Source of the DNA: Idiomarina sp. | GTDB lineage: Bacteria > Pseudomonadota > Gammaproteobacteria > Enterobacterales > Alteromonadaceae | NCBI RefSeq assembly: GCF_048260185.1 | Contig: NZ_JBLXHB010000004.1 | Span: forward strand, 88,622-152,621 | Length of the DNA: 64,000 bases | Direction of reading: 5' to 3' | Shown here: positions 1,959-29,683 of the stretch, piece by piece | Numbering within the stretch: position 1 is the stretch's first letter | Layout: every line of letters starts with the position of its first letter | Program-made: the position numbers and the translations under genes | The notes under the pieces: model-generated | What the model was told of the DNA's origin: nothing | Database searches by the model: none | Seen by the model: only the letters and a program-made list of their open reading frames with translations

Positions 1959-1963
1959 TTACC
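1959..1963. repeat. left copy of 5-bp target-site duplication TTACC
   Basis: TTACC lies immediately outside the left terminal TGTGAAG. An identical TTACC lies immediately outside the right terminus at 29679-29683. 5 bp is the Tn7-family duplication length. Confidence 0.75.
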
Positions 1964-2022
1964 TGTGAAGTGACAATATAGTTTGTACATTAAATAAAAA
2001 AATGACAATAAAGTTTGCACAC
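1964..2022 (+). repeat. Tn7-like left end with two putative TnsB-binding repeats
   Basis: The terminal repeat 1964-1991 contains AGTTTGTACAT. A second copy, ATAAAGTTTGCACAC, lies at 2007-2022. The same ATAAAGTTTGCAC core occurs inverted at the right end. Confidence 0.75.
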
Positions 2023-2129
2023 TGAGTGGAGAGTAACACTAACTTCTTTGTTGACTGTTAAGTGCCAGGAGCGGACCTTCAGTAACGCTGCGTTTACCGG
2101 CTTGTCTAGTGCAACGACTTGTTAAAAGT

Positions 2130-2843
2130 TTACCTAGAAGGGCCACCCCGATATGGGCTTGACTCATCATCTTCGGGTGATGGTTTGCTATTTTTAGGTT
2201 CAGGCGATTTACTAAGACTCAGTTTGTTCGAGAACTCAATAAGCTCAGCTACAGTTGAAAAAATTCTTAAGTCTACCCCATGTTCAGGGTCAAAAGTTAA
2301 ATGGACTCCATAAAAACTAGAATCCCCATCATCACCTGCGATATTTGATAGTTCGTTTATGTATGCCTCAAAACTCTCATTACTTACCCCAGCTTTAATA
2401 TCTAAGAAATCATCAACAAACTCCGGTATCCACCTTTCATTATTACCATCAAAATGCTTATTAAATAACGCGCAGACCGTAGGAAGGTATGTATCAATTT
2501 TCACCCTAAGCCTATTGTCTTTTGAGTTCTCAAGCCGCCAAGCAATGAAGTGAGCATTTAGTGAATTAGAAAGGTTAGCATCGCTTATGATGTTGCATAG
2601 TTTATTTCTTAATGGTTTTCGTGACTCTGATGATATTTCAGATTTAAACTCTTTAAATTCTATAAGTATATTTTTAGCATTAACCCCTGCAAAATAGTCG
2701 GCATATTTCCTATCTTGACTTCCATTAAATGCGCCGTAAGCATAGGGAAACTCAGCGCCAAATTTTCTACCTATCTTAAACTTTAAATGCTCAACAAATG
2801 CTTGCTGAACTTGAGCTTCACCTATTTTAGTTTTAGGCTCCAT
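2130..2843 (-). CDS. hypothetical protein with PD-(D/E)xK-like motif (possible nuclease-fold protein)
   Basis: 237-aa ORF. 'ADYFAG...NILIEFKEFK' gives a D...ExK arrangement. The C-terminal tail is low-complexity and acidic/Pro-rich. No confident family. Confidence 0.5.
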   Translation of the reverse strand: MEPKTKIGEAQVQQAFVEHLKFKIGRKFGAEFPYAYGAFNGSQDRKYADYFAGVNAKNILIEFKEFKSEISSESRKPLRNKLCNIISDANLSNSLNAHFIAWRLENSKDNRLRVKIDTYLPTVCALFNKHFDGNNERWIPEFVDDFLDIKAGVSNESFEAYINELSNIAGDDGDSSFYGVHLTFDPEHGVDLRIFSTVAELIEFSNKLSLSKSPEPKNSKPSPEDDESSPYRGGPSR

Positions 2844-3009
2844 ATATATCCCTATTTTCTGTAAGTTTAACGTCTAGCGTCACTTGCAAGCTAGACTACC
2901 TTGTAACGTCAGAAAGTCCAATGTCTGCTTTTCGCTCACAGCAGACTGTCAGGTTAGTGCCAGGAGCGGACGTTGACGTCGGCAGCAGAGGTGCGAGCTT
3001 GCGAGCATC

Positions 3010-3486: not shown

Positions 3487-3506
3487 AGTACCTATCCTTA
3501 ATTTTC

Positions 3507-3577: not shown

Positions 3578-3581
3578 TTTT

Positions 3582-4574
3582 TTAGTACAGATCCACGCTA
3601 TCGATTTCGCATTCCGCACTACTTATTTTTGCGCTCGTGACCTCTTGATAAGACCCAAATGAAAAGTTGAAATTAAGAGTTTCGCTATCACTATCGTGAG
3701 CATAGAGATCGTGAGACTCATCTCCATAACTTGAGTCTGATTGAGTTGAATACGTGTTTCTACCCTTATATTCAATCTCAACTGTGCACTCGACTTCAAC
3801 GTCTAGGTATGCACCGCCGCTATAATCGGTGTTTACTTCATAGTTAAGCGAAACGTCACAATCATTATAATAATTACCAGAATAGCTTTCGTTACAATCA
3901 ATATCGCCCCCAGTAATTTCAACACAAACTTCAGCGTTTGTTTTGTACTCTGTATCGCAGTCGTCACCACTTACGCCCTGAGCTCTTCGACGCTGCATTT
4001 CAGCAATAGCGGCTTTTTCCAACTCAATTTGCCTTTGAAGCTCTTGCTGTGTCATAGCCTTGCATGAGCTTCCAACTTTCTTGAAACCTCGATTACATTT
4101 CCAGCCACTACCATAAATGTCGATACTCGCGTTTTCGGGAACTTGAACTTTTACACATTTATTGCCGAACTTGTAATAGCCCCTATTGCACTTCCAGCCA
4201 CTGCCGTAAACATCAATCCCCGCGTTTTCAGGAACTTGAACCTTTACACAGGTATTGCCTGATTTGTAATAGCCCCTATTGCACTTCCAGCCACTACCGT
4301 AAACATCAATGCCTGCGTTTTTAGGGACTTGAACCTCTACACAGGTGTTGCCTGATTTGTAATAGCCCCTATTACACTTCCAGCCACTGCCGTAAACATC
4401 AAGACCAGCATTTTCTGGTATTTGAACTTTTTCGCATTTATTGCCTGACTTGTAATATCCTCGATCACACTTCCAACCACTGCCGTATGGATTCTCTGAA
4501 GCATGCTCTGGAAGACTTTGAGACCAGGATAGAGACGCGAAGCACATGCAAAAAATTATTAATAATATTCTCAT
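3582..4574 (-). CDS. secreted Cys-rich tandem-repeat protein
   Basis: 330 aa with a signal peptide (MRILLIIFCMCFASLSWSQS). Carries about 4.7 tandem 31-aa repeats, YGSGWKCNRGYYKSGNxCVKVQVPENAGIDV, with 2 Cys each. A coiled-coil-like segment and an acidic Cys-containing C-terminal domain follow. Confidence 0.7.
   Translation of the reverse strand: MRILLIIFCMCFASLSWSQSLPEHASENPYGSGWKCDRGYYKSGNKCEKVQIPENAGLDVYGSGWKCNRGYYKSGNTCVEVQVPKNAGIDVYGSGWKCNRGYYKSGNTCVKVQVPENAGIDVYGSGWKCNRGYYKFGNKCVKVQVPENASIDIYGSGWKCNRGFKKVGSSCKAMTQQELQRQIELEKAAIAEMQRRRAQGVSGDDCDTEYKTNAEVCVEITGGDIDCNESYSGNYYNDCDVSLNYEVNTDYSGGAYLDVEVECTVEIEYKGRNTYSTQSDSSYGDESHDLYAHDSDSETLNFNFSFGSYQEVTSAKISSAECEIDSVDLY
4053..4487 (-). repeat. 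tandem 93-bp coding repeats (about 4.7 copies)
   Basis: CCACTGCCGTAAACATCAA-type strings recur with a 93-bp period (for example near 4199, 4292 and 4385). This matches the 31-aa protein repeat. Confidence 0.85.
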
Positions 4575-4588
4575 CTATGTCTCATTAA

Positions 4589-5650: not shown

Positions 5651-5697
5651 TAGATTCCAATTTGGAATGCCCCCAGTATCATTGACACCCTGACGCC

Positions 5698-6504
5698 TCA
5701 AAATGAGGCTTGCTCAAACTGCTCGGGGCTGATGCCACCGAGGTGACTATGTCGCCGTTTCCGGTTGTAGAATACTTCAATGTAATCAAAAATGTCAGCT
5801 CGCGCTAATTCTCGCGTTTTATAGACCCGTTTTTTAACCCGCTCTTTCTTTAAACTACTAAAGAAAGACTCTGCAACGGCGTTATCCCAACAGTTAGCCC
5901 GACGACTCATGCTGGGCTCTAAGTTATTAGACTTACAAAACCGGAACCAATCATCGCTTCCGTATTGTGACCCCTGATCAGAATGCACTAATACTGAGGA
6001 GGTCGGTTTTCGACGCCACACAGCCATCAACAGAGCGTCTAGAACAATTTCTTTAGCGAGACTAGGCTTCATCGACCATCCAACAATATTACGGGCGTAA
6101 AGATCCATGACAACCGCAAGAAAAAGCCAGCCCTGCCAAGTCCGGATATAGGTAATATCAGTTACCCAGGCTTGATTAGGTCGTGCCACGGTGAATTCCC
6201 GCTGTAATAGGTTAGGAGTCACAATAGCTGGCCGGCCGGCTCCGTATCGAAATCTCTTATATCCCCTTGAGGCCTTGATATTATGTGCATTCATAATTTT
6301 TAAAACACGATTTTTACCAACCGACTCGCCGAGCTCGCACAAATCCAAATGAATGCGCCGATAGCCGTAAACACCGCAACTGGCGCTATGCGAATCTTTT
6401 ATTAAGGGGAGCAACCGACGATCTTCCAAGGCACGATCAGATAACGGTTTATCGATCCAGAAATAGAAACCTGCACGCGCAACCTCAAGAACTCGACACA
6501 TCAA
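5698..6504 (-). CDS. IS3-family transposase OrfB (DDE/rve), expressed as an OrfAB fusion by -1 frameshift
   Basis: The -1 frame continues from the slippery site as KKGRKVLCKPARVKYQFINEHRRIHSIALMCRVLEV..., so the OrfB frame is open upstream of the listed Met. An rve-type DDE core is present (WVTDITYI...HSDQGSQY...ESFFSSLKKE). Confidence 0.85.
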   Translation of the reverse strand: MMCRVLEVARAGFYFWIDKPLSDRALEDRRLLPLIKDSHSASCGVYGYRRIHLDLCELGESVGKNRVLKIMNAHNIKASRGYKRFRYGAGRPAIVTPNLLQREFTVARPNQAWVTDITYIRTWQGWLFLAVVMDLYARNIVGWSMKPSLAKEIVLDALLMAVWRRKPTSSVLVHSDQGSQYGSDDWFRFCKSNNLEPSMSRRANCWDNAVAESFFSSLKKERVKKRVYKTRELARADIFDYIEVFYNRKRRHSHLGGISPEQFEQASF

Positions 6505-6548
6505 AGCAATCGAATGAATGCGCCGATGCTCATTGATGAACTGGTACT

Positions 6549-6854
6549 TTACTCTGGCTGGCTTGCAAAGTACCTTGCGGCCTTTTTTAGAATGTCCCGC
6601 TCTTCCTCAGTACGTTTTAGGTCTGAACGTAGTTTCAGTATTTCTTTTTTAGCCTCTATCAGTTCATCGTCCTTTTGCTTGGAGGGGGTCGGGTTGGCTG
6701 CTTTTACCCACTTATAGAGACTGTGTTGAGATACCCCCAAGTTCGCAGAAACTTCAGCAACGGTGTACCCTCGTTCTATCACTTGACGGACTGCTTCATC
6801 CTTAAATTCTGGACTGTATCGTTGGTTGTTCATAAACTTTCCTCCTATGCTCAA
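6549..6854 (-). CDS. IS3-family transposase OrfA (HTH)
   Basis: 101 aa. YSPEFKDEAVRQVIERGYTVAEVSANLGVSQHSLYKWVK is a typical IS3 OrfA HTH. A leucine-zipper-like C-terminus ends at the frameshift window. Confidence 0.85.
   Translation of the reverse strand: MSIGGKFMNNQRYSPEFKDEAVRQVIERGYTVAEVSANLGVSQHSLYKWVKAANPTPSKQKDDELIEAKKEILKLRSDLKRTEEERDILKKAARYFASQPE
6582..6588 (-). promoter_or_regulatory. programmed -1 ribosomal frameshift heptamer A_AAA_AAG
   Basis: On the gene strand the orfA frame reads ...ATT CTA AAA AAG GCC.... The canonical IS3-family slippery heptamer is in the correct phase. Confidence 0.7.
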
Positions 6855-7045
6855 ATAATAGTCAGGAATTGTCTATGATTCTCGGTCCACTCCAATTGGA
6901 ATGGTTCAGTGTCTAGTAAACTAGTACCGACTCAGTTAATCTTGACAGCCTAGACTATGAGCATAACAAGAGCTGTATAGTTAATTGGAAAAATAGGACG
7001 CAAGTTTTCATTCAGTGGGTATTAAATACTAAAGGATTTATAGAC

Positions 7046-7405
7046 ATGCTATGCCATCAAACTAAACCTTTTATCTTAAATTTTGCAACCAAGCGAGAAC
7101 TCTCACAGTCTCCGGAAATTGGTGGTTTTTACTCGGAACAAGCTGATATGTGGTTCGATGCAGAGTCCATGATGCCGGCAATTGATTCATTAGCGTTCAA
7201 CAGTGCGGAGCTAAATACAAAGACGAAAGTCGATGTTGAGAGAGACGATGAAAGTCCATACGCCCTCGAAATGATGACTAAGACCAAGGTGCATGAAGAG
7301 AGTGACGATACCGATTTAAGATCCTGCATCTTGAATAGTTTACTAACGAAAACTGACGTGGCGCAAGAAAAGGACGATAACTCGATGAGTCCTTATGACC
7401 TATGA
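7046..7405 (+). CDS. putative graspetide (omega-ester/amide RiPP) precursor with three core repeats
   Basis: 119 aa. The leader contains KPFILNF, resembling the microviridin-type PFFARFL recognition motif. Three repeats are present: TKTKVDVERDDES, TKTKVHEESDDTD and TKTDVAQEKDDNS (nt 7217-7384). They are rich in Thr/Lys donors and Asp/Glu acceptors. The stop overlaps the ATP-grasp start (ATGA). Confidence 0.6.
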   Translation: MLCHQTKPFILNFATKRELSQSPEIGGFYSEQADMWFDAESMMPAIDSLAFNSAELNTKTKVDVERDDESPYALEMMTKTKVHEESDDTDLRSCILNSLLTKTDVAQEKDDNSMSPYDL

Positions 7406-8349
7406 TTCTTTTGGTCACGAATAAGAGGGATATTACGACCGACTATATTGTCCGTGAATTGCGTAAAAGAGAAGTCGACTACTATCGGTTAAATACAGAG
7501 TCATTAGCGAATTACGAATGCTCTATTGGCTATGAAAACATGGATGATTGGCGGATTGGGTACATTAACGGCAGCCAGGTTCAATCTGCCTATTTTCGAA
7601 GACCTTCCTCCCCTGAGTATACAAACTCATCAGAGACCAGTGAAAATGAATACATTGCATCAGAATGGTTGGCTTTTTTAAAAAGTATTTACGCTCGACT
7701 CGAAGGTAAGTGGTTCAACTCACCAGTATCGATAGCACTTGCAGAAGATAAGCCGAAGCAATTGCTCTTAGCGAAGGAAGCGCGCTTCAGAGTACCCAAC
7801 GGTTTAATTACTAACGTTGCTAACGATATTATTCAGAAAACAGGGAGCAATGGGCTTATCATTAAGCCTGTAAGGCAAGGTCTAATCGAAGGTAAAGATG
7901 ACAAGGTGATTTTTACCAGCAGAATCCCTGAAGTAAACACTGCACATGCTTCAGCTATTTCCCAGGTTCCCTCAATTTTTCAACAAGAAATCATTAAGAA
8001 GTTCGATGTAAGAGTTACTGTGGTTGGAAAGCAGATTTTTCCAGTCGCAATTTGGTCGCAGGATGCAGAGCAAACGAGAGTAGATTGGCGTAAAGGAGGG
8101 AGGATAGATTTGCGTCATCAAGTTATCGAACTACCGACAGGCGTAGCTGCATCATGTATTGAGCTAACATCAAAGTTAAATTTGAAGTTTGGCGCTATTG
8201 ACCTGATATGTGATCAAGAAGATAACTATTGGTTTTTGGAAATAAATCCAAACGGACAATGGGCGTGGATTGAGAATCAGACAAATTTACCCATCGCTTC
8301 TACAATCGTAGATGAGTTAGTTGCCTGTCGGAGAAAACATGAACTTTGA
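7402..8349 (+). CDS. ATP-grasp ligase, microviridin MdnB/MdnC-like (graspetide macrocyclase)
   Basis: 315 aa. The N-terminus MILLVTNKRDITTDYIVRELRKREVDYYRLNTE matches the MvdD/MdnC-type pre-ATP-grasp domain. The C-terminus GAIDLICDQEDNYWFLEINPNGQWAW is the ATP-grasp Mg/ATP-binding motif. Translationally coupled to the precursor. Confidence 0.75.
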   Translation: MILLVTNKRDITTDYIVRELRKREVDYYRLNTESLANYECSIGYENMDDWRIGYINGSQVQSAYFRRPSSPEYTNSSETSENEYIASEWLAFLKSIYARLEGKWFNSPVSIALAEDKPKQLLLAKEARFRVPNGLITNVANDIIQKTGSNGLIIKPVRQGLIEGKDDKVIFTSRIPEVNTAHASAISQVPSIFQQEIIKKFDVRVTVVGKQIFPVAIWSQDAEQTRVDWRKGGRIDLRHQVIELPTGVAASCIELTSKLNLKFGAIDLICDQEDNYWFLEINPNGQWAWIENQTNLPIASTIVDELVACRRKHEL

Positions 8350-8992
8350 TTTATTATGGCCAAGACTATCAGGTAAATCAGATGACGAATCATTAAAGAG
8401 AGATCTTGAATTAATAAAGAAAGCTGATCCCGGTGACTTTGTTGATGTCGCGCTAGGCGAAGCTCGGAGGCTTTACGATCAAGAGCAACAACGAAGGTCC
8501 TCTGCTGACAGTAAGGGTGGACTATATCTTGGTGTCGCTACAGCTTTCCTCGCGTCACTAATCACATTGTCTCCATTAGCAATCGATATTATTGGGAGAT
8601 CAGAATCTGGTCTGTATTCGGCACTGTCGTGGCTAATGGTTATAACGATGGGCATATCAGCTATTGTTGCGTTTCGTTGTATTCTCTGGGCAAAACACGC
8701 ATTGAAAGTAGCAGCCTTTCGAACTATGAGCTGGAGAGATTTACTCAATGTTGGTGATGAAAAAGTTGAGCTGACCTTATTTCGTGACACTCTGAAATGT
8801 CTGCGTCACAATTATGTGGCGACGAATGAGAAAGTGACGAATGTGAAAATGGCGGAAGCACTTTTAAAAAGTGCGTGGTTTTGGCTAATCCTAAGCCTTC
8901 TTGTAAGACTTTTTTATCACCTAATAGAGGGCAGCCCGAGTGGCTCTGAAACTATCATCAATGTAATTAGCATCTGTTCTGAGATGGCGTGA
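8339..8992 (+). CDS. hypothetical membrane protein, third gene of the ATP-grasp operon
   Basis: The ORF track starts at a TTG at 8321; the ATG at 8339 (MNFDLLWPRL...) overlaps the ATP-grasp stop by 11 nt. It has 3-4 TM helices (LYLGVATAFLASLITLSPLAI; WLMVITMGISAIVAFRCILWA; AWFWLILSLLVRLFY). Confidence 0.5.
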   Translation: MNFDLLWPRLSGKSDDESLKRDLELIKKADPGDFVDVALGEARRLYDQEQQRRSSADSKGGLYLGVATAFLASLITLSPLAIDIIGRSESGLYSALSWLMVITMGISAIVAFRCILWAKHALKVAAFRTMSWRDLLNVGDEKVELTLFRDTLKCLRHNYVATNEKVTNVKMAEALLKSAWFWLILSLLVRLFYHLIEGSPSGSETIINVISICSEMA

Positions 8993-9130: not shown

Positions 9131-9568
9131 TCAAGCTTCATTTTCAAACCACAAGTATCCTAAAAACCTTGTCGAATCGTTATGAATAGCAAGGAATAGT
9201 TCTGACGCCTCTTTCTCAATTTTTAACAAACGTTCGTCAAGAGAAGCAGCTTGCCATTCTTGATAACCATTGTGTGCATCTATACAGGATGCAATAGCTT
9301 TATGACTTAGGAAGTTTCGTTCATCTTTGAACTTGTTGAGGCGTTTAACCAACTCTTGATTATCGGAAAACTTCTTAAATTCAGTAATTAGCCTTTCGAG
9401 AGAGTGGTTTTGAAAATCGTCGCCGGACATTCCAAAGGGCATACGGTCACCCAGACGTTTTTTTATGAGGGCGACAGCGTGAGCTAAATAGAGCTTCAAC
9501 TCCATCTCTACCATCTGACATCCTGATAGCGCTCTCGAAACCTTGAGGAAAAACTCGTCTTGCTCCAT
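9131..9568 (-). CDS. HEPN-domain protein (paralog 1)
   Basis: 145 aa, all-helical pattern. Rx4H motif RNFLSH. Shares the block L(E)RL...F.K......EL..RLNK.+..RN...H with the 12505..12933 product. Confidence 0.55.
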   Translation of the reverse strand: MEQDEFFLKVSRALSGCQMVEMELKLYLAHAVALIKKRLGDRMPFGMSGDDFQNHSLERLITEFKKFSDNQELVKRLNKFKDERNFLSHKAIASCIDAHNGYQEWQAASLDERLLKIEKEASELFLAIHNDSTRFLGYLWFENEA

Positions 9569-9585
9569 ATGCCCTCTAAACAGCT

Positions 9586-10050
9586 AACCTTTGAATATTG
9601 TGCGTGTGTTCTTCGTAACTCGTTCCATTTTTAGTTGCCGCATATTAAGTTGCTGCTCAAATGAGCATTCTGAGAGGTTTTGAGTTAACAAAAATCAACA
9701 TGAGCAAGCTAGCTTACCTTTTAAGGGGCGTACAATACTAAATTTTAGTTTTTCTTTATGTAATTGACACTAAACGACCTAAATACGCAAAACAACAACA
9801 AAACGTGCAATGTTGATGAGGCAAGCGTGCCGTACATCGTTAGCAACATTCCCACTTAACAATAGCAGGCCGGTTAATCTCTAAATTGAAGTAGAAAAAA
9901 GTCTTAAAAAGGCTAATGATTCGCTCTTCGTTTGTTGCTGAACTTCGGTTTCGTGCCAAGAGAGGACTTTAAATTTTACTCTCCGCGCCTCCATCTGCGA
10001 CAACTCAGGCTTTAGAGAACTAGTGGCGATTCAGTCATATTAGTGAGCCC
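9586..10050 (-). repeat. copy B (uninterrupted) of the ~470-nt conserved non-coding module
   Basis: Homologous block-by-block to 5261-5650 + 6909-6950. It lies between the stop of 10084..10797 and the start of 9131..9568. Confidence 0.7.
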
Positions 10051-10083
10051 TGCGTTCCTGTGCTTCCTCCTTGATAAGATACG

Positions 10084-10797: not shown

Positions 10798-11322
10798 CCT
10801 ATTCCCTTTGAAGCTGGAGTGATTTAGCTCGCTTATATCTATTTACATTAGTAGAGTATTTTAATAAATATTCTACAATCGTTTAATAAGGTTAGATACT
10901 CAATTCACTTAAATTTGAGGGGGCCCTGACAGTTTCCTCGTCAAAAAATAACGAACACACATTGCGTTGCACTGAAAGATTTAACTCACAGCTCCTAGCG
11001 GCTTGAAGGTTCGATGCCAATAGCAGAGATTGGTATTTTTACGAATAACAAATTTGAACTGGTTCTTTGGTGAGCCGTGTCTAAAAAACTCCTCACCGCG
11101 TTAAGCATTTTACTGTCATTGAAAAAGTGTAAATCGCAAAAAAGTAAGGGTGGCTTACCATGCGGACACTCCAATTTCATATCAGGTGGCAAGAGAGCAG
11201 AAAAATTATAAAGCAATTTAGAATCAATAAGTTATAGAGGACTCTATGTTGCACATTGACTTCTTGTGTTAATTTCTCGTTAACAAAGCTAAGCTATTTT
11301 TTTATTTCTCTTTATTTTTTTC

Positions 11323-11895: not shown

Positions 11896-11937
11896 TCGTA
11901 ATTAGGTGCCAGGGAAGAGTACGAGCAAGGGAAATAA

Positions 11938-12933: not shown

Positions 12934-12949
12934 TCTTGTGTCTAACCCC

Positions 12950-20389: not shown

Positions 20390-20395
20390 AATTTG

Positions 20396-21955
20396 CTAGT
20401 TTTTATCTCTACTGTTTATCAAGGAGCGGAGCAACGCTTTACCTTCAAACCCGATTTGTCCGTTGAACGAGGTCTCAATTTGCTCATACGACTGACCTTT
20501 CGATACTAGTGAATTAAATAGTTCTAAATATCCTGATTTAGAGACTTCTAGCCCGAAAACGTCTCTAGTTAAGCGACCAACATTCTCTGCGAAAGTTTCT
20601 ATCTCTGGTCGGGAAATATCAAATATGCCTCTCTTTCGCCTTATAACGGAAACACATAATTGCGGAACTTCTTGTAAGACTACAGGAGAATGCGTAGCGA
20701 CTATAGCGACGCCGTTTCTGTTTAAAAGTAAGTCTGATAACGCTCGTGTGAATGCGGACAAAAGTGGCGGATGCAAGTGACTTTCTGGCTCATCAAGAAA
20801 AACTATAGTTTTTTCTTCAACTGACTCAACGAGCTTAGTCATTGTAAGCAAGACTATTGAATGGCCAGAGCTCATTCGATGAAAAATAGAGTATGCTTGC
20901 TGGTTAAAGCGGGTACGATCTTGTTTGTATAAATCAACAAGTTGATTTAACTGCATCTCTTCAAAGTTTAAGTCCGACTCGAGTTTTTTTATTGCCTCTA
21001 ACCAGCGGGCCTCTTTAGCAGACAAGGATAAGCACCTATCTAGGCTAATAACGAAGTCGGAAGCTAGTTCATTTTTTGTTTTCAGGCTCCGCGTCTCTGC
21101 ATTGGAGTCTTTATTGGTTTTTTGAAGACCAATATATTTGTACCTCATGCCGCCCGAGGAGCTTTGCTGGTCCTCGGGCGGTTCGAAGGCGTCAAAAGCG
21201 CTAAAAGATACAGATACTACCCCGGCAAAATAATCCTCATCTAGTTTAGTTTCTAACGGAAGAAAGTTGCCATTACTATAAAATGCACCAGGAATCTTGG
21301 CCTCATCTTCCTCCCTAGCTAACAATGAACTGAGCATATTATTTATGAGCGTTGTCTTCCCCACACCATTTCGGCCGATTAATATATGAACGTTTGAGCT
21401 TGGCATTGACTTAGGTTCTACCTGAAAGGAGAGTTCGACTGCTGAAAAGCCCCCGCTAGCAGCTTGTTTATATGAGAAATCGTACTCACTCAAAGCTGCG
21501 TCGCCCTTAATAATTCTTTGGAACTGATTAGAGATCGTCGAATGGTTTACCATTCTCATTAAAGATGTATTAAATGAATCTTCACTTTCGACGTGTTTAA
21601 GTAATTCGGGGTAATAAATCACGTCTCTTAACGCGGTTAGGGTGTATTGAGCAAGCTCTTGAGGAACTTCCTCCATTAGAGCTTTGTAATAATCTGCGTC
21701 CTGGCCTAATGAAAAGAAACTCTCTGGAAGTTGCTCGAAATGGCTTTCGATGCTTTCTGCTGTTGCTCCTTCCTTTTGTCCAAAAAAGCCAATTTTCACA
21801 CTCCCTACGTCATATCGGTTTGACTCTGAGTCAAAGATAGTGAGTGAGAATAATGTCTTAAAACCGAAATCGTCCCAATTGTCAGCTTGCAAGATTATCT
21901 GGCTTTTCGCGTCGTTAGGTATAGAGGTGCGAGAATTTAGTTTTCGAATGTACAT
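20396..21955 (-). CDS. ptuA: ABC/AAA15-type ATPase, Septu PtuA-like
   Basis: 519 aa. Walker A LIGRNGVGKTTL, signature-like SSGHS, Walker B IVFLDEPESHLHP and a D-loop/H motif (VATHS). The ~190-aa N-terminal extension is as seen in the PtuA/OLD-like ATPase class. Confidence 0.65.
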   Translation of the reverse strand: MYIRKLNSRTSIPNDAKSQIILQADNWDDFGFKTLFSLTIFDSESNRYDVGSVKIGFFGQKEGATAESIESHFEQLPESFFSLGQDADYYKALMEEVPQELAQYTLTALRDVIYYPELLKHVESEDSFNTSLMRMVNHSTISNQFQRIIKGDAALSEYDFSYKQAASGGFSAVELSFQVEPKSMPSSNVHILIGRNGVGKTTLINNMLSSLLAREEDEAKIPGAFYSNGNFLPLETKLDEDYFAGVVSVSFSAFDAFEPPEDQQSSSGGMRYKYIGLQKTNKDSNAETRSLKTKNELASDFVISLDRCLSLSAKEARWLEAIKKLESDLNFEEMQLNQLVDLYKQDRTRFNQQAYSIFHRMSSGHSIVLLTMTKLVESVEEKTIVFLDEPESHLHPPLLSAFTRALSDLLLNRNGVAIVATHSPVVLQEVPQLCVSVIRRKRGIFDISRPEIETFAENVGRLTRDVFGLEVSKSGYLELFNSLVSKGQSYEQIETSFNGQIGFEGKALLRSLINSRDKN

Positions 21956-22220: not shown

Positions 22221-23372
22221 CTAGTCTTCCGGCCACATCAAATATGGTTCTGCGTAAGTAAATTTTGAATGATCTAGAGCTATGCTGTGCCGTCTGTAAA
22301 AGTCAGACTCGGGCCCGTTGAAATCAGATAAAGCTTTCATCTTCTGATTAGTAGACATTTTTCTAATTATTCTTAAACGCTTGCTATAATTGGAAATTCC
22401 CATACCTGCTAGGTAGTCTATTAGTATCAGAAGATTTAGCTCGCACCGACGTGTTAAACGTACATCGGCTCTAGTAGGGATAATAGCTAAATTTGCAAAA
22501 CAGCTCGTGTATTCGCAGTCGTGACATTTCGATGTTTGACTTTTATAGGCTTTTTCGGTTATGGCTCCCCGGTTGATAGCACCAGAATCTAAGTGTTTGA
22601 CTTTAGATGACTTATTAAAGAAGTCCGTGAATCCTTGATGCTTATTTTCTTTTGCTGAGTAATATATTTTTTTCATCATGTATGGTTTAGTGACGAAGCT
22701 TACTGAGCCGTATTGCGCACCAAGTAACTCCTTTGAAAAAAGTTTGAAATTCTGTGTGACCCAATTTTTAAAGTCGTTAACCAAACAGGGAAGGAAGTAG
22801 TCATTAATGTGTTTCTGCGAATCTTTTTGGGGGGCTAGAATATAGCCTGCTTTATAATTAAGGCTTTCGTAATCCTCAGGGTGTTCCCCTTTCAATATAA
22901 AGTTTAGAGCAGCAACGGCTTGTTCTCGGTTATTCGCTTTAGCAATATGAAGTTTCATATTGTGAATTGAGCAATATGAGTTTTGATACCAGTCAATACT
23001 AATTATCCCATATCCAAAATTCTGAATATAGTTTTTGATGCATTCAAGACAGTAGGTTATAGGGAACGTTCTTTGTCTGGCTCCTATTTTTCGCTTATTT
23101 ATGCCAAAAAATCTTTCTAGTTCATCCCGGTAAGAAGCGGGATTACCGAAAATATCATTTGTTTTATGTGCCAAGCCAAAGTCTCTCAATAAGTTCAGAA
23201 ACTTTAAATCATCAACTGGCTTATATAGATGCAAAGAGCCTTTTAATATTTTAGGTGATGCAGCCCAGAGACCCTTACTTGTAATGATATTGGAAAAACT
23301 CGAAACTCCATTTACCATATGAGTACGGAAAACATAACTGTGGATAGATTCTTTTTTTTGAATCTTTAGCAA
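22221..23372 (-). CDS. second, short TniQ-like target-selector candidate
   Basis: 383 aa. The N-terminus (ESIHSYVFRTHMVNG) and the Cys/His cluster YCLECIKN...YCSIHNMKL parallel the TniQ/TnsD zinc-finger region of the adjacent 521-aa protein. It occupies the position of tnsE or a second tniQ. Confidence 0.5.
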   Translation of the reverse strand: MLKIQKKESIHSYVFRTHMVNGVSSFSNIITSKGLWAASPKILKGSLHLYKPVDDLKFLNLLRDFGLAHKTNDIFGNPASYRDELERFFGINKRKIGARQRTFPITYCLECIKNYIQNFGYGIISIDWYQNSYCSIHNMKLHIAKANNREQAVAALNFILKGEHPEDYESLNYKAGYILAPQKDSQKHINDYFLPCLVNDFKNWVTQNFKLFSKELLGAQYGSVSFVTKPYMMKKIYYSAKENKHQGFTDFFNKSSKVKHLDSGAINRGAITEKAYKSQTSKCHDCEYTSCFANLAIIPTRADVRLTRRCELNLLILIDYLAGMGISNYSKRLRIIRKMSTNQKMKALSDFNGPESDFYRRHSIALDHSKFTYAEPYLMWPED

Positions 23373-23573: not shown

Positions 23574-25139
23574 TTATGGCTTGTTAAGCTTTTGGAGCTC
23601 TAACATTGTGAGAGGCAGTTTGTGTAGCTTCCGTGTTAGCCAACCATGCCCGCCTAGCATCCTATCTATATGGGTACGCGAAATTTTTCCATCGCAATTA
23701 GTTAAAATGCCTTTAACTTGTGGAGCTAGCTCGAGGTCACGTTTTTTCCAGTCGACTTTTGGGGGTAATTTAGGCTTTGTTGGCTTCGGCAATGTTTGAT
23801 TGAGCCAATCTCTCTCATTCGCATAAAGCCAATAAAAAGCTGAATAACAACTCTTTTTAATTTGTTCTCGGGTGGCTGAGTGATTCATTTGCATCGCTCT
23901 CAGTACTGTTGCTTTATAACATCGTCTTTTTGATTGGTATTTATATTGTCTTCTTCTTACGACTAGACCTTCTTCGGAGGATATGATTTGCTCTACACTA
24001 CCAGTTGATATGCGTAACTCGTTGGCAATTTTCTGGCGGTGAAACCCTTTATATGCCATTGATATCACGGCTTTTATAACTTTTTTATTAATCAGCCTCG
24101 GCCTAAGGCTTATCGCGACATTATTCTTTATTGCTAAAGCTTTCAAATAGCACCTACTTTTTCCTGTAATTTCGCTTACTTTAGCCATTGATTTCCCTTG
24201 CTTTAAAAGGCTCAGGCACAGTTTAGACTTATCCTTGTTAATTGGTTTCTCCTCAGTTGTACTGATTTGATATTTATCGAAGTCAGGTAGCTTATTATTT
24301 AACCAAAATAGTATCAGTAGATACTTAAAGGGGTGTTGGCATACCGATCCTGATAATAAATAGGAAAGGTACCGGTAGTCTTGCTCAGAGACTGGTAACA
24401 AACCAGTTGAAGTACGTTTTAAGCCCATTGCAAAATGAAAAAAGTCTGATGTTAACTGTTGTCTCTTGAATCGCGTTTCGCCACACATGTACCCAAGGTC
24501 TTTTAAGCGCTCTAAGAGGTTGGGCAGACTAAAAAATTCATTTGATAAAGAAATATGATGTATGTAATTTTTCGTAAATTTTGCGAGTTTGAAGCTCATC
24601 TCTTGGCATTCTTCGAATTTTTCAGAACATTTGGGTAATAGGAGTGGTTTTATGTGCGGTCTAGCAGGGAGTCCCTGGTGCATAAGCCAGACTTTATGCT
24701 CCGAACATGCTTCTATTCCAGGTATTTGGTGAACTCGATGCCAATATGTAACCCCGAATTGTCTTATGTCGTTATTGGCACACACAGGACAGTATTTTAA
24801 AGATAATAACTCCGATTCTTTGAAGGTAACTAGTTGAGATGCTCTAATCGCCGCAGTCCCGTTGTTTCGAAGAAGTGCGTTTGAAATTGATTGAGCATGT
24901 TGGGGTAAAAAGTACGAAAAAAAACTTCCTAGTGTTTGTTCTTGATAAATTTTAAATATTGAATCTTTACATATGCTGGCCGCTTTAGTGATACCTACAG
25001 TCAAGTATGGGTGAATACTTGCACGGGGCTTATTTAGTAGGGCTTTAAGGTAGTCACACTCTGTCATTCCTAGAATGGTCATATGCCGGACATAACGACT
25101 AAATAAAGTTTCGTCAGGTAATGGTGAGGGAAGCTGCAT
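23574..25139 (-). CDS. tnsD: TnsD/TniQ-family target-site selector
   Basis: 521 aa. The TniQ N-terminus is MQLPSPLPDETLFSRYVRH and the CCCH zinc finger is CPVCANN...WHRVHQIPGIEACSEH. C-terminal HTH-like repeats are present. It lies directly downstream of tnsC. Confidence 0.8.
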   Translation of the reverse strand: MQLPSPLPDETLFSRYVRHMTILGMTECDYLKALLNKPRASIHPYLTVGITKAASICKDSIFKIYQEQTLGSFFSYFLPQHAQSISNALLRNNGTAAIRASQLVTFKESELLSLKYCPVCANNDIRQFGVTYWHRVHQIPGIEACSEHKVWLMHQGLPARPHIKPLLLPKCSEKFEECQEMSFKLAKFTKNYIHHISLSNEFFSLPNLLERLKDLGYMCGETRFKRQQLTSDFFHFAMGLKRTSTGLLPVSEQDYRYLSYLLSGSVCQHPFKYLLILFWLNNKLPDFDKYQISTTEEKPINKDKSKLCLSLLKQGKSMAKVSEITGKSRCYLKALAIKNNVAISLRPRLINKKVIKAVISMAYKGFHRQKIANELRISTGSVEQIISSEEGLVVRRRQYKYQSKRRCYKATVLRAMQMNHSATREQIKKSCYSAFYWLYANERDWLNQTLPKPTKPKLPPKVDWKKRDLELAPQVKGILTNCDGKISRTHIDRMLGGHGWLTRKLHKLPLTMLELQKLNKP

Positions 25140-25183
25140 GATCAGTCCACAAATTAATTTTGTTGTCTATATTTTAGACTACT

Positions 25184-26611
25184 TTATCCAAACTGCTCTA
25201 ATGGTGAATCACACAGAATTCTATGTTGCCTAAGGTATTTGAGGGGGTCGCTTTCGTCTTCAGCTCTTCTAAGTAAGTCAGGATCGGCTATTTTAGCTGG
25301 TAAATCGACTGCGTTTTGTAGGTCTCTAAGTTGACTTTCAAACTCGTGGTGTTGTGGGCGAGTGATATCTCCAATGACTCTTTTATCGACTTCCTGAGTT
25401 GTTTTTGCTGAGGAAGGAGATTGTCGATTTTCTCGCCTGGGTAGTGGGTTTTTTTCACGCAAAGTCGCTACTTCATCGGTTTTAGAAGATAGACCGCAGG
25501 CGGAAATATATGCGTGCTCTAACACTGCTGTTGTTATCCTCTCGTCACCTGAACCAATCACCTGTTTTTGTGCTTGACGATAAATTCTGTGTGCCATATC
25601 AAGATTTCCAACGGAAAGCTCGAATAACTTATCATTAAGCTCGTTAGTTAATTCAGTAGTAATGTTGGTCCAATGTAAATCCCATAATTCGTTAATAAAA
25701 CAATCCCATCCATCGCTGTCACGAGCTAAAGCGTCCATCTCGAAATAGCCTCCGCTCTCGGCTCTTCGGGCTGCTTTTAATTTCTTTGCGAGCGTTTTAT
25801 TGAACGGTGGATTAGCACAAAAAAAGAGAGGAACACCTAAATTATTTACTAGGCTGTGTAAGAAATTCAGAAGGCTGACTTCACCACCCGTGCGGTTAAA
25901 CTCGAAGCGCTGCATTTCGTCTATGACTAAAATACCCAGAAAGCTAGCCTTAATTTTTTGTTCTATTTGACGATTAAGTCCACCGATGGTTGATTTGGGT
26001 ATTGTGCGTTCATTACCGATAGCCAAGTCTAAAGCAGCTAAGATTTCCTCACATAAGTCTCTAACGCTAGATTTGTTAGGGCAATCAACTTTCAACCAAA
26101 CGACTTGATATTTATGCTCCATGACGTGCCCGAAGTAGTTGTCATGCTCAATAACATTGGGAAAGTAGTTTAGTATTTGTTCAAGCATGCTTGATTTACC
26201 GACACCGCTCTCTCCAACAAGCGTAATTCCGTCTCCTTTAGGTTCAAAGTATCCAGTGCTCGGTGGAATATCGGGTCTTTGGTCAAGGGGATAATGTAAA
26301 AATTGTGACGTTGTCGGACTTAGTGGATTTTTCGCGGAGTAACCCGCTTTGATTGCATCTTCTATCGCTCTGAAACATTTATAGTAGATGGGCAGTGGCT
26401 GGCGCAGGTGTTTCAAGCGTAAAGTGTATTCCTCTCTTACCAAGGGATCGGGATGTTGCCTTATATCTTCATCAAGCTCAGGGTAATAGCTAAAAGCCTC
26501 CATAACCTTCTCTTGGCTTGCTTTAGGCTTTAAAGCTTCTATTAATGGGTTACCTTGGTGTTCCGGCAATATAGCTTTATGATATGTAGCCTTTTCCTTA
26601 CGCATAACCAA
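25184..26611 (-). CDS. tnsC: TnsC-like AAA+ transposition regulator
   Basis: 475 aa with Walker A GESGVGKSSML and Walker B LGILVIDEMQ. Positioned between tnsB and tnsD. Confidence 0.85.
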   Translation of the reverse strand: MVMRKEKATYHKAILPEHQGNPLIEALKPKASQEKVMEAFSYYPELDEDIRQHPDPLVREEYTLRLKHLRQPLPIYYKCFRAIEDAIKAGYSAKNPLSPTTSQFLHYPLDQRPDIPPSTGYFEPKGDGITLVGESGVGKSSMLEQILNYFPNVIEHDNYFGHVMEHKYQVVWLKVDCPNKSSVRDLCEEILAALDLAIGNERTIPKSTIGGLNRQIEQKIKASFLGILVIDEMQRFEFNRTGGEVSLLNFLHSLVNNLGVPLFFCANPPFNKTLAKKLKAARRAESGGYFEMDALARDSDGWDCFINELWDLHWTNITTELTNELNDKLFELSVGNLDMAHRIYRQAQKQVIGSGDERITTAVLEHAYISACGLSSKTDEVATLREKNPLPRRENRQSPSSAKTTQEVDKRVIGDITRPQHHEFESQLRDLQNAVDLPAKIADPDLLRRAEDESDPLKYLRQHRILCDSPLEQFG

Positions 26612-26617
26612 TGTGCC

Positions 26618-28735
26618 TTACTGTGATCGTCTACGAGGTAAATAAACAACACTATTAGTATTAGTGCTAATATCAGTTTTATCGTTTGGCTGTACTCGCA
26701 ATGAAGGGTCGCTTACGACTTTATTTGCTGTTTCGTGAATTTCAGTTTTGCGACGCTCTCTAGTATTTTTAGTCTTTTCAGCGGAAGTCATTCTGTCGCT
26801 TTTAGATCTAGCTTTTGCCTTTTTCTCGATATTAGTTCTTGAGACTTTAGTATCAATAGATTCAACACTTATTGGGCTTTTTTCATAATTCCTATTGAGC
26901 CAATCCAGAACGAACTCGGACTCGTGCATAGGGAGATTTTTGAGCATGCTTCCTTTTTTAAGCAAGCTACACTTGGTGAACGCATCATTTTTATCAAATC
27001 TAACGTATATGTAATTGGTAGTGTTTTCGTTAATTCTTGCATCTAACTGCCATTGTCCGTTGGTTCTGGCGATTGAAGCTAGCTTATCTTTAACCACGCG
27101 GTCACACGAGTAAAACATATTATTATACTCGATACCTCCACGAGTCATACTGGCCTTAGCTGGTGGATATAAACGACTAATAACATCATTGCTGTCGGCT
27201 AGTTTTAACGCATGCTTATGCTCAGCTATGTGGGCTTTCCAAAAATTTAGAGGGGTAGGAAGTATGTCTTTTTCAATTAGTAAGGAACTGGAGGTCGCCA
27301 GGCTTTTATAGAGAGAGCGGTTTAGCTCTAACACAGCATCAATCAACAAAGCAGTAAACTCGGATAATGTGTAGATTGCGTCTTTTCTTGGGTCTTTATC
27401 ACCACGAACAACTTTTCCCCCTCTCGTCGTGCCGAGGAGATTGTGGATCATTTCCTTATTTAATAACCCAAAGCGCCTTTCGACCATAGATTTAAAGTCC
27501 GGACGATATGGAGGAGATAGTTGTAGCTCTGTTAACGGCACTACCAAGTGCTGAGGGTTTAAACCAATCATTTCGCCATTGTCACACATTAACCTCAAAG
27601 GAATATGTGCTGCAGGCCAATCCGAATTTTGGATATTAATGCCAAACTCTTTGCAATAAGGCCCTTTGGGCAAAAAGGCGTTTGCAAGCGCCTGTCTAGC
27701 AGCTCTCCACGATGCAAAATACAACGATACATTTAATCCAACTATCATTGCGCTTGCCCTGTCAACAATAGTGTATATTGTGGGTCTTCCCAAAACGTAT
27801 TGCTTACCAAAGCTTGAAACTATATGAACGTCGGCGACTGTAGCGTCAATTTCAAAGCAGCTTCCGGGAACAGACCATCTTTGCCTTGCATTACCTAGCA
27901 AGTCTCTTTTATTTAGAAAATAGTCATGTTCAGTTGATGATTTTCTTGATATTTCATCTTCAGTAAAAAGCTTATGCTTCCATGAGTGAACTTGTTTATA
28001 GCTAGGAACGTATGGAATCTCACCGAGCGCCTTAGCCTTCTTAATCTCATCAGAGTAATATGTTCTCAACAACTCTTTCCTGGTCTCAACTAAGTTTTTT
28101 CCACCAGGTTTTAAATGATACTTCTCAAGAACTTTACGAATTTTTTCTTTATCAGCATCCGTGACTATAAAAGTCTTTGATCTTTTAACAGCAAGAGTTC
28201 TAGAGGTTCTAGGTGCCCCAAGTGCCGATTCGCTGACTTTGCGTTGTTGGCCTCGCCCTCCGCTGTATTGATATGCGGGTAACAAGGCGTTTTTGTCTTG
28301 GCCGTATCGCCAATAAGTGCTTAATAACCTAGCTATAGTTGTTCGGGCCTTACCTTTATCTTTTGCGTGCCTCGCTAATGATTGAACTCTATTCTTAGTT
28401 GCGTAGTCGAAAATAAACTCAGATTGTTCAATAAGACTTTCTATTAGGCTAAAGTTTTTATCTCTTACTGCCGCATAACGTTCGTTTATTTCTTCTTCAC
28501 TCATTAGTACATGTGGCGGTAATGAAAAACTCCCTTTCAAAGCTTCTTTTTTATTCAAGCTTCTAGAAAAACGTTCTAAATCTATTGCTATTGGCCTACG
28601 TATACCTTTTGTACTTTCCAAGTTAAATAATATTAAACAGCTAATATTTTCAAAAACCTGAAGAAGACGATATAACCCGGGCTGAACACCATCAACATTA
28701 CGGATATCCCATACACTGTTTTTAACAAGCTCCAC
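26618..28735 (-). CDS. tnsB: TnsB-like DDE transposase
   Basis: 705 aa. Mu/Tn7-type rve core (FEIDATVADVHIV ... RLMCDNGEM ... downstream E). Basic C-terminal tail. Overlaps tnsA by 14 nt. Confidence 0.9.
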   Translation of the reverse strand: MELVKNSVWDIRNVDGVQPGLYRLLQVFENISCLILFNLESTKGIRRPIAIDLERFSRSLNKKEALKGSFSLPPHVLMSEEEINERYAAVRDKNFSLIESLIEQSEFIFDYATKNRVQSLARHAKDKGKARTTIARLLSTYWRYGQDKNALLPAYQYSGGRGQQRKVSESALGAPRTSRTLAVKRSKTFIVTDADKEKIRKVLEKYHLKPGGKNLVETRKELLRTYYSDEIKKAKALGEIPYVPSYKQVHSWKHKLFTEDEISRKSSTEHDYFLNKRDLLGNARQRWSVPGSCFEIDATVADVHIVSSFGKQYVLGRPTIYTIVDRASAMIVGLNVSLYFASWRAARQALANAFLPKGPYCKEFGINIQNSDWPAAHIPLRLMCDNGEMIGLNPQHLVVPLTELQLSPPYRPDFKSMVERRFGLLNKEMIHNLLGTTRGGKVVRGDKDPRKDAIYTLSEFTALLIDAVLELNRSLYKSLATSSSLLIEKDILPTPLNFWKAHIAEHKHALKLADSNDVISRLYPPAKASMTRGGIEYNNMFYSCDRVVKDKLASIARTNGQWQLDARINENTTNYIYVRFDKNDAFTKCSLLKKGSMLKNLPMHESEFVLDWLNRNYEKSPISVESIDTKVSRTNIEKKAKARSKSDRMTSAEKTKNTRERRKTEIHETANKVVSDPSLRVQPNDKTDISTNTNSVVYLPRRRSQ

Positions 28736-29606
28736 TGAAGAGGTCCTCTGTATTAATATCTATACTTAAAATTTCAATGAAGTCAGAGTTCTCTAATGGA
28801 AAAGAAAGATCTACCGTAATCTTTTTTCTTCCGATTAAACTCCTCAACATAGTGAGGGAGGCTTCATGTTGCAATTTCAGCTTATCGATGAACAAGTAAC
28901 AGATCTCTCGAATAAGGTGTTTGCCTAGTGACAGGAAAGATGCAGCGATACTCAGTTCATCTTCAGTGAATATCTGCTTCTCTGACCTTAAAGGGTGGGT
29001 AGCCCAGTTAATGTTACTACTTTGAATTTGTGTTAGCTCATTACCAATAAAATAAGAGAATTTTACGCTCAGCAGCTCCCACCAAACTCTCTCGAGTTCT
29101 AATTTTTCAAGTACTCTTCTATTACTAACATCGTGCTCTGGCTTGACTGAAATAGCTTCATATATCTTTTTGCCGTCAATAAATCTAGTTAGCAGGAAAT
29201 CGGTAGTAATAACTATTGGTACCTTAGTTTCGGGATGAGCAGGGTGAACTATACCGAGAGCCTCAGCTATCTTTATCGATAGGTTTATAGGTAACAAAGG
29301 GAACTGTTCTCTGATGTCGATGACAGAATCCGAGTATTCGGCAAGGTAAAAGAACTCGGTTTCTATTGAGGAAAGAGTATGGTGTACTCTACCTGTTTTA
29401 AGACCTAAAACTTGCGAGCGAATTCCTTTCGATTTTACATCCTGGACCCTCAGCCAAGGCTTGTAGGTACTAAGTTCACCAATCCCGTACTTATCTTTTA
29501 AGGCTCGACTATAGTCATCGAACGTTTTGAGCTTTCTTCGAGCCATCAAAATTTCCAAAGTATAATTTCTTAATAGAATACTAGGCAGAAATGACTTAGC
29601 GTGCAA
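28722..29606 (-). CDS. tnsA: TnsA-like endonuclease
   Basis: SSIETEFFYLAEYSDSVIDIREQFPL plus ISVKPE is TnsA-type restriction-endonuclease-fold motifs. It is the first gene inside the right end. The start is probably MARRKL at 29546, because 29606 lies inside a TnsB-site repeat. Confidence 0.85.
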   Translation of the reverse strand: MHAKSFLPSILLRNYTLEILMARRKLKTFDDYSRALKDKYGIGELSTYKPWLRVQDVKSKGIRSQVLGLKTGRVHHTLSSIETEFFYLAEYSDSVIDIREQFPLLPINLSIKIAEALGIVHPAHPETKVPIVITTDFLLTRFIDGKKIYEAISVKPEHDVSNRRVLEKLELERVWWELLSVKFSYFIGNELTQIQSSNINWATHPLRSEKQIFTEDELSIAASFLSLGKHLIREICYLFIDKLKLQHEASLTMLRSLIGRKKITVDLSFPLENSDFIEILSIDINTEDLFSGAC

Positions 29607-29678
29607 ACTTTATGGGAAATTTTCATTCATTGCGTGCATGCTTTACCGCGAGCGTGCAAACTAAATTATCATTTCACA
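29598..29678 (-). repeat. Tn7-like right end with three putative TnsB-binding repeats
   Basis: AGCGTGCAAACT at 29598-29609 and 29651-29662, plus the variant TGCGTGCATGC at 29631-29641. The terminus ...ATTTCACA ends at 29678. Confidence 0.8.
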
Positions 29679-29683
29679 TTACC
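29679..29683. repeat. right copy of 5-bp target-site duplication TTACC
   Basis: Immediately follows the terminal ...CACA. Its last base is the first base of the (reverse-strand) yhiN stop codon at 29683-29685. Confidence 0.75.

Follow-up and report, generated by a model that had tools for sequence, protein, structure and literature searches.

A 64-kb stretch of the Idiomarina sp. contig NZ_JBLXHB010000004.1 (88,622-152,621), hereinafter designated the window, contains an island that is a complete Tn7-like transposon with anti-phage genes, located directly past yhiN. The element occupies window positions 1964-29678 (27,715 bp), to which numbering all coordinates refer, and both junctions were read directly. 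It contains a TnsA, a TnsB, a TnsC and a TniQ/TnsD selector, the protein set of a Tn7-like element. Specifically, tnsABCD is present without tnsE, and the gene after tnsD is TniQ-like. With high confidence, 1964-29678 is one complete cut-and-paste transposon that entered an Idiomarina-type chromosome through the site-specific pathway of TnsABC and TnsD.

Ends of the element and target-site duplication

On the left, the element begins with TGTGAAGTGACAATATAGTTTGTACATT (1964-1991); on the right, reading inward from 29678 (reverse complement of 29651-29678) gives TGTGAAATGATAATTTAGTTTGCACGCT. These termini are imperfect inverted repeats with 22 of 28 positions identical (binomial tail ~9e-9 for one random pair of 28-mers). 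The pentamer TTACC is present on both sides of the element, as read directly and by alignment to empty sites, with the left copy at 1959-1963 and the right copy at 29679-29683 (TTACC on the plus strand; GGTAA in the yhiN sense). The right copy shares one base, the last of the stop codon, with yhiN. In nine loci that lack the element the pentamer is present in single copy, as expected of a 5-bp target-site duplication.

Repeat scans define the internal structure of both ends. The left end (1964-2025, plus strand) starts with TGTG and contains two putative TnsB-binding repeats (1968-1993 and 2000-2025). The right, tnsA-proximal end (29596-29678, minus strand) also has a terminal TGTG and contains three such repeats, two of them strong (29649-29674 and 29596-29621) and one degenerate (29632-29645). 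The element therefore has TGT...ACA termini and internal repeats that are arranged differently at its two ends, as Tn7-like elements do. The three-site layout of the right end is also found in the relatives L097, L098 and L100. A preliminary description of this DNA had reported the 22/28 match, the two pentamers and the extra repeats (two left, three right), and all of these hold on direct reading, with the qualification that the third right copy is degenerate.

The four strong copies of the ~26-bp repeat, two per element end, were used to find out where else the repeat occurs. With up to three mismatches allowed, the consensus TGAYAATWTAGTTTGYAC matches four times in the 64 kb, compared with 0.24 matches expected, and none of 100 shuffles reaches four. 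Three of the four matches are at the element ends, while the fourth is a three-mismatch match at 11657. When the four strong sites are turned into a weight matrix, they themselves score 35-39 bits, and nothing elsewhere in the 64 kb exceeds 7.6 bits. Because the matrix finds no site beyond the element ends, the end repeats are not a dispersed repeat family, the case that the preliminary description had named as refuting its boundaries. Scans for promoters and terminators across the two junctions gave no useful information.

These results bear on the alternative that the island is an integrase-type genomic island or a prophage remnant, with terminal repeats that are dispersed and unrelated to its boundaries. 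The island is AT-rich relative to the yhiN side, like many islands, and no other support for such an origin was found. By contrast, the Pfam scans of the 27 main open reading frames (ORFs) of the island (at least 80 aa) contain no integrase and no phage structural gene, the repeats occur at the two ends only, and the 5-bp duplication, the TGT...ACA termini and the adjacent tnsABCD genes are present together. The repeat scan, together with the alignment to empty sites, refutes the alternative, and we consider it extremely improbable.

Empty sites and native flanks

The empty site was found in related genomes. Window positions 582-1964 align to positions 10466-9081 of the empty-site locus L083 at 96% identity, and window positions 29679-38779 align to positions 9086-1 of the same locus at 94.7% identity. 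The two alignments overlap on a single GGTAA pentamer and thus define the insertion to the base. The predicted 205-nt empty site aligns end to end with nine loci, namely Idiomarina loihiensis GSL 199 (CP005964; strain identity from PMC6193092) and eight metagenomic contigs, and its core, GAGTTGTAGGTAACTTTCAGGGAGAGCG, is identical in five aligned empty-site loci. An alignment to island-free relatives had been proposed as a check in the preliminary description, and the junction predicted there, with a single TTACC, is present in all nine loci.

The contigs were found by exact-sequence look-up of the AsnC-family protein encoded in the left flank, and yhiN in these contigs adjoins the same lysE and asnC genes. 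Redoxin and AsnC, as conserved neighbours, served as look-up queries; exact-sequence look-ups with YhiN, LysE and TnsD gave no match.

The native left flank (582-1958) is defined by synteny and consists of an asnC-family regulator gene (604-1047, minus strand), a lysE-family exporter gene (1123-1740, plus strand) and an intergenic region, which adjoined yhiN before the insertion. The flank is 96% identical to, and collinear with, I. loihiensis GSL 199 and the eight metagenomic contigs. Because it is present and collinear in the empty-site genomes, it is native, and an older island as the origin of its AT-rich composition was rejected for the same collinearity. The G+C content of the island is 0.417, that of the right flank 0.501 and that of the left flank 0.420 (syntenic part, 0.447). 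The island had been described as more AT-rich than both flanks; this is true of the yhiN side, but the left flank is nearly as low in G+C as the island itself, and the contrast is therefore confined to the yhiN side.

Further out, collinearity with I. loihiensis does not extend to window positions 1-581. An MFS transporter occupies this place in I. loihiensis, and the window sequence resembles (74%) a 145-aa gene located 5 kb downstream of yhiN in the locus L081. Position ~582 is a second rearrangement breakpoint.

Two other loci, L001 (a metagenome-assembled genome, 85% DNA identity) and L081 (GCA_025933435.1, 96%), were considered as empty sites and rejected, as their homology to the window starts only at 29685. 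In both, the yhiN stop codon is TGA, compared with TAG in the window, and different genes lie downstream. Specifically, a 320-aa ORF, an acyltransferase gene and a LytTR two-component system follow yhiN in L081 from position 11671, while L001 diverges from position 11180. The 3' site of yhiN is a variable hotspot even where Tn7-like ends are not detectable.

Junction at yhiN

The attachment-site gene yhiN (also rdsA; 29683-30864, minus strand) encodes a HI0933-like flavoprotein of 393 aa (Pfam HI0933_like, 324 bits; NCBIfam TIGR00275, 432 bits). YhiN has the same length in the empty-site genomes, and the gene is intact, as the preliminary description had stated. Its stop codon, TAG, occupies 29683-29685 on the minus strand and the last base of the element is 29678, so that 4 nt separate the two, rather than the one base first proposed.

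The tnsA end faces yhiN, giving the gene order yhiN, tnsA, tnsB, tnsC, tnsD. Tn7 inserts ~25 bp past the stop codon of glmS. The geometry at yhiN had been likened to that of Tn7 at glmS, and the likeness extends to the orientation, the 5-bp duplication and the sparing of the target gene, but not to the distance (4 nt compared with ~25 bp).

Core transposition genes and mobility

All four tns genes are on the minus strand. tnsA (28722-29546, ATG at 29546) encodes the endonuclease subunit of the heteromeric transposase (Pfam Tn7_TnsA-like_N, 58 bits; cut-off 26.5), which at 274 aa has the length of its homologues. The protein matches the Tn7 TnsA structures 1f1z/1t0f (E 2.9e-31), with the active-site residues E (ssiEteff), D (tTDFL) and K (svKp) aligned. 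tnsB (26618-28735) encodes a DDE transposase of 705 aa, which was assigned by its match to the Tn7 TnsB structure 7pik (phmmer E 6.7e-46); EIDAT, DnGE and vE of this protein align with the catalytic D, D and E. Neither the local Pfam-A nor NCBIfam matched TnsB, even with E relaxed to 5, and TnsB homologues carry PF27135 (HTH_TnsB) in precomputed annotation. Evidently the rve and Mu-transposase models do not reach the TnsB clade of this element.

tnsC (25184-26611) encodes an AAA+ regulator of 475 aa (Pfam AAA_22 and TniB). In the comparison with the Tn7 TnsC structure 7mbw (E 1.7e-36), the Walker A motif GxxGxGK (GesGvGKs) and the Walker B motif IDE (vIDEmQ) are aligned. tnsD (23574-25139) encodes a protein of 521 aa with a TniQ domain (Pfam TniQ, 40.8 bits; cut-off 27) and a TnsD C-terminal domain (Pfam TnsD, 93.1 bits; cut-off 32.4). 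TnsD is presumed to be the yhiN-specific target selector. The TnsE family has no Pfam match among the 27 main ORFs of the island.

Judged from its genes, nothing suggests that the transposition machinery has started to decay, and the element is probably still mobile. The alternative is that the island arrived by Tn7-like transposition and is now a fixed, immobile fossil. In its favour, neither a second copy nor an excised form was found, the exact right-end 25-mer was not found in the metagenome collection (a degenerate pattern was used instead), the exact TnsD protein is not on record elsewhere, and an insertion sequence of the IS3 family has landed in the cargo. Moreover, the sister lineage L001 keeps solitary left ends only, downstream of yhiN, which indicates that such elements decay at the yhiN site. 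Against it, the five core genes are full length compared with their homologues and the catalytic motifs are intact, the two ends and the two duplication copies are undamaged, with identical pentamers, and the insertion sequence lies in the cargo, outside the tns genes and the ends. We therefore regard a fossil as unlikely and the element as probably mobile.

In L001 (metagenome-assembled genome BLK54; yhiN at 10001-11179) the solitary left ends are located at 17029-17067 and 20999-21029, that is, 5.9 and 9.8 kb downstream of yhiN. One of them matches the left terminus of the window element exactly across 26 nt. Neither tns genes nor a right end accompany them, and they resemble the remains of a tandem array that decayed at yhiN.

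Target selection at yhiN

Searches with TnsD returned 162 homologues at E <=1e-20, the nearest of which (65-66% identity) belong to marine Gammaproteobacteria; no member with TnsD identity above 66% was found among the homologues searched. Several of the homologues are encoded by elements that lie directly after yhiN with the tnsA end proximal, including those of Agarivorans (L097, 64%), Colwellia (L098, 56%) and Vibrio parahaemolyticus (L100/L101, 40%). An element of Shewanella (L065), whose TnsA and TnsB are ~51% identical to those of the window element, also lies directly after yhiN. Insertion at the 3' end of yhiN is orientation-specific, with the tnsA end proximal, in the window element and likewise in L065, L096, L097, L098 and L100.

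The degenerate end motif recovered 71 ends from metagenomes, and yhiN is immediately outside 24 of them. Among the tnsA-proximal ends with at least 100 nt of flank, yhiN abuts 16 of 20. At 22 junctions, the element is joined 34-38 nt (mode 36) past the FQWxW codons, counted from the last codon of this conserved yhiN motif, and 1-5 nt past the stop codon; the values for the window element are 37 and 4, respectively. The comparison shows that the insertion position is set by conserved yhiN coding DNA and not by the stop codon. Because the position tracks the coding motif, yhiN is spared in the marine genomes, while E. coli yhiN loses its last four codons. In the window genome the gene is whole because it ends early, and the fixed distance falls 4 nt past its stop codon.

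The most conserved block of the aligned flanks is located 37-75 nt before the junction and is the expected, putative binding site of TnsD. In Tn7, the TnsD footprint covers ~23-58 bp from the insertion point. If the window element works as Tn7 does, its TnsD would bind the 3' coding part of yhiN that encodes TGWLGGYNFQWAW, ~37-75 bp from the insertion point, and would recruit the AAA+ protein TnsC. TnsC would in turn activate TnsA/TnsB, presumably assembled by then on the end repeats. Joining would take place at a fixed distance past the binding site, with the tnsA end towards yhiN and with 5 bp (GGTAA) duplicated.

Several points weigh against a Tn7-like, TnsD-directed insertion at yhiN. The left end has only two clear repeats, fewer than the three of the Tn7 left end. 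The stretch of yhiN in question is conserved at the protein level anyway, and the conservation of its DNA therefore does not independently point to a binding site. A PDB sequence search with TnsD returned no chain at E 0.01, and the analogy of this protein to Tn7 TnsD accordingly comes from the Pfam domains only. Four of the 20 related right ends are not at yhiN, so that the backbone family is not strictly tied to this gene. Finally, a 2024 review describes the molecular details of yhiN targeting as unknown (PMC11406308).

The related right ends that do not abut yhiN are those of L106 (a TARA contig, 2851-2875), L130, L132 and L139. TnsA is 67-68% identical to that of the window element in L106 and L132 and 48% identical in L130 and L139. 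The right end of L106 lies ~210 bp downstream of an mltC homologue. The flanking sequence GGCTCAATCAGGCCTAACAAAT recurs in L122, L155 and L162, and a near-identical sequence flanks L130. Evidently, members of the backbone family have changed attachment sites.

A different Tn7-like element is found at yhiN in L172 (metagenome contig CESK01005099.1, ~9444-9473), whose YhiN is 92% identical to that of the window. It joins 1 nt past the yhiN stop codon and has ~1.2 kb between its end and tnsA.

A second TniQ-family gene

A second, short TniQ-family gene, here designated tniQ2 (22221-23372, minus strand; 383 aa), was recognised by a weak match to Pfam TniQ (E 0.024, full profile covered) and by profile comparison. 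In ten homologues, residues C108, C111, C134 and H137 are invariant and correspond to a TniQ-type CCCH zinc finger; a second cluster, C283, C286, C291 and C310, is invariant in the same set. Alignment of tniQ2 to the TnsD-family alignment with hhalign gave a probability of 76.5% (E 2e-5) and matched residues 4-151 to TnsD residues 6-162, while the C-terminus of the tniQ2 protein is unrelated to TnsD. The AlphaFold model of the protein, built from a 10-sequence alignment, was too poor for use (mean pLDDT 49, pTM 0.27), and the profile-profile comparison replaced a fold search.

Homologues of tniQ2 number 246 at E <=0.001 among 1.84 billion cluster representatives. A homologue follows tnsD in Tn6230 (L094, E 1e-10), in an element on IncHI2 plasmids (L093/L095, E 4e-15) and in V. 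parahaemolyticus L100. In Shewanella L099 the homologue is beside tnsD on the opposite strand. In Colwellia L102 type I restriction-modification genes lie upstream of it, and tns genes are absent within 10 kb. An element of V. cidicii carries tnsABCD, hsd genes and tniQ together (PMC12671221).

The tniQ2 protein is a candidate for an alternative selector or cofactor. Recognition of yhiN might thus need this protein, or be done by it, either alone or in complex with TnsD. This would be in line with the homologous short tniQ genes beside tnsD in Tn6230, L093/L095, V. parahaemolyticus L100 and Shewanella L099, with the retained residues of the CCCH zinc finger and with the alignment to the TnsD N-terminus, and a two-protein selector, TniQ+Orf3, is listed for Tn6022 (PMC11406308, Table 1). 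On the other hand, two elements located at yhiN (+36), those of Agarivorans (L097) and Colwellia (L098), have no detectable tniQ2 homologue in the 8 kb after tnsD, although a gene of this type could lie deeper in these elements, compare Colwellia L102. In addition, TnsD has the TnsD C-terminal domain by Pfam. In Tn7 TnsD, this domain is thought to carry DNA recognition. We consider a role of the tniQ2 protein in yhiN recognition improbable. TnsD is the preferred yhiN selector, because the two elements without a detectable tniQ2 within that distance sit at yhiN nonetheless.

It is conceivable, although doubtful, that tniQ2 encodes an independent second selector that replaces TnsE in yhiN-targeting elements, including Tn6230, and is aimed at plasmids or other mobile DNA. 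If true, this would explain why Tn6230 and a 50%-diverged relative are both found on IncHI2 plasmids, and why some close relatives of the window element sit away from yhiN.

Cargo genes

The cargo is mainly anti-phage defence, represented by HyoA, PDC-M01 and a Panacea-domain gene. HyoA (13889-18193, minus strand), a NACHT-domain anti-phage protein of 1434 aa, matches NCBIfam NF058534 at 1591 bits (cut-off 1200). The G+C content of its gene is 0.49, compared with ~0.41 for the rest of the island, and this higher value suggests that HyoA comes from a different source than the transposon backbone. The candidate defence system PDC-M01 (19529-21955, minus strand) consists of gene A, which encodes a PtuA-like ATPase (20396-21955; PADLOC PDC-M01A, 681 bits), and gene B (19529-20389; PDC-M01B, 327 bits). 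The 272-aa ORF at 18545-19363 was considered as kin of the DUF6933 gene that follows Colwellia tniQ2 and was rejected, the two being unrelated on comparison.

A SocA/Panacea-domain gene (11323-11895; Pfam SocA_Panacea, 52 bits) is followed by a 156-aa ORF that has no match in the library scans; together they occupy 11323-12408 on the plus strand and are possibly a toxin-antitoxin pair. A three-gene cluster (7046-8992, plus strand) contains a homologue of ATP-grasp ribosomal-peptide maturases (7402-8349; Pfam RimK; NCBIfam TIGR04187 at 228 bits, below its cut-off of 350), flanked by ORFs of 119 aa and 223 aa that gave no matches. As cargo of the transposon, it is possibly a peptide cluster of the graspetide type.

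The IS3-family insertion sequence (5654-6902, minus strand, boundaries approximate) contains orfA (6549-6854) and orfB (5698-6504), with matches to Pfam HTH_Tnp_1 and rve. Its imperfect inverted repeats of ~41 bp, at 5654-5694 and 6861-6902, were found by local alignment and had been missed by the general repeat scan. A 330-aa ORF (3582-4574, minus strand) matches the Pfam MSP1 EGF domain (E 2e-10, residues 139-171), which is unusual for a bacterial protein; the match is probably to a cysteine-rich repeat. Several cargo ORFs have no match in any library scanned, and Pfam, NCBIfam and PADLOC scans of the cargo detected no metal-resistance genes.

Earlier surveys lead one to expect defence genes on Tn7-like elements, and the present cargo is one more example. 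The same point has been made for E. coli (PMC10121019).

Comparison with known elements

yhiN is a documented attachment site of Tn7-like elements (PMC11406308, PMC10121019, PMC10201428, PMC12671221) and is among the safe-harbour loci of TnsD (PMC10201428). Tn6230, whose prototype is on the IncHI2 plasmid R478, is common between yhiN and yhiM in the E. coli chromosome, where this hotspot is the only one that it occupies (PMC10121019). A sil/pco Tn7-like module has been transposed into yhiN/yhiM in the laboratory (PMC8417528).

The window element and Tn6230 share the yhiN target, the tnsA end towards yhiN, tnsABCD followed by a short TniQ gene, a 5-bp duplication and end repeats of the GACAATAAAGTT type (PMC13049778, PMC11406308). 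Their proteins are distant, with identities of 43% for TnsA, 40% for TnsB, 45% for TnsC and 34% for TnsD, and the end sequence of Tn6230, TGTCCGAGGACAATAAAGTTGT, differs from that of the window element. Tn6230 inserts 5 nt nearer the conserved yhiN motif (+32 in E. coli, flanked by ATTGC, compared with +37). Because E. coli YhiN is longer, this position falls within the reading frame, 13 nt before the native stop codon, and the element end supplies a new TAA. The cargo of Tn6230 is silver and copper resistance, whereas that of the window element is phage defence.

In the strict sense, the Tn6230 subfamily is defined by shared terminal repeats and a sil/cop region, with the left inverted repeat (IRL) TGTCCGAAGACAATAAAGTTGT and the duplication GCTGC (PMC13049778). 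As the fetched Tn6230 copy deviates from the published terminal repeats, its end was read directly. The window element has neither these repeats nor this duplication; its ends are TGTGAAGTGACAATATAGTTTGT and TGTGAAATGATAATTTAGTTTGC, its duplication is GGTAA, and only a GACAAT..AGTT core is common to both. The sil/cop region is likewise absent. The core proteins, 34-45% identical to those of Tn6230 with no accepted threshold for such values, are closer by bit score to Tn6230 than to Tn7. The window element thus appears to be a distant relative of Tn6230, not Tn6230 itself, and is a new member of the recognised yhiN-targeting class of Tn7-like elements. The attribution of yhiN to Tn6230-type elements in the preliminary description agrees with the literature for the functional class, not for close kinship (TnsB 40%, TnsD 34%).

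Two different Tn7-like elements are located downstream of parAB on IncHI2 plasmids. One, in L094 (from 11013), is Tn6230. The other, in L095 (from 15043), is a relative with TnsB 51% identical to that of the window element; it lies in an array of ~250-bp repeats and carries TIR and CBASS cargo between tnsC and tnsD.

With Tn7, the window element shares TnsA/TnsB, TnsC, a TniQ/TnsD selector, asymmetric multi-repeat ends, a 5-bp duplication and orientation-specific insertion past the 3' end of a conserved gene. It differs from Tn7 proper in its target, which is yhiN and not glmS, and in the absence of TnsE from the Pfam scans. Its TnsB scores 160 bits to that of Tn7, compared with 530 bits to that of Tn6230.

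Tn6022/AbaR, which targets comM, is Tn7-like and pairs a TniQ-family selector with another protein (PMC11406308, Table 1). The two TniQ-family genes of the window element may be analogous to this pair, a likeness drawn by description and not by sequence. Tn6022/AbaR inactivates comM, whereas the window element spares yhiN.

The closest relatives are the marine yhiN-associated elements of Agarivorans sp. JK6, Colwellia, Shewanella, Vibrio parahaemolyticus and V. cidicii VC01 (PMC12671221). The Agarivorans element has identities of 73% for TnsA, 77% for TnsB, 79% for TnsC and 64% for TnsD. Like the window element, the marine elements have a three-repeat right end with a TGTG terminus, and several have an extra tniQ gene and defence cargo. 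Their junction is 3 nt past the yhiN stop codon, so that the window junction is 1 nt further out (+37 compared with +36), and the cargo is different in each. The window element, at an attachment site that was already documented, is an ordinary though well-resolved case and does not overturn current understanding. Its value is that of a natural element resolved to the base, with occupied and matching empty sites and with ends, target and full protein set defined, which together are the material needed for reconstituting yhiN targeting.

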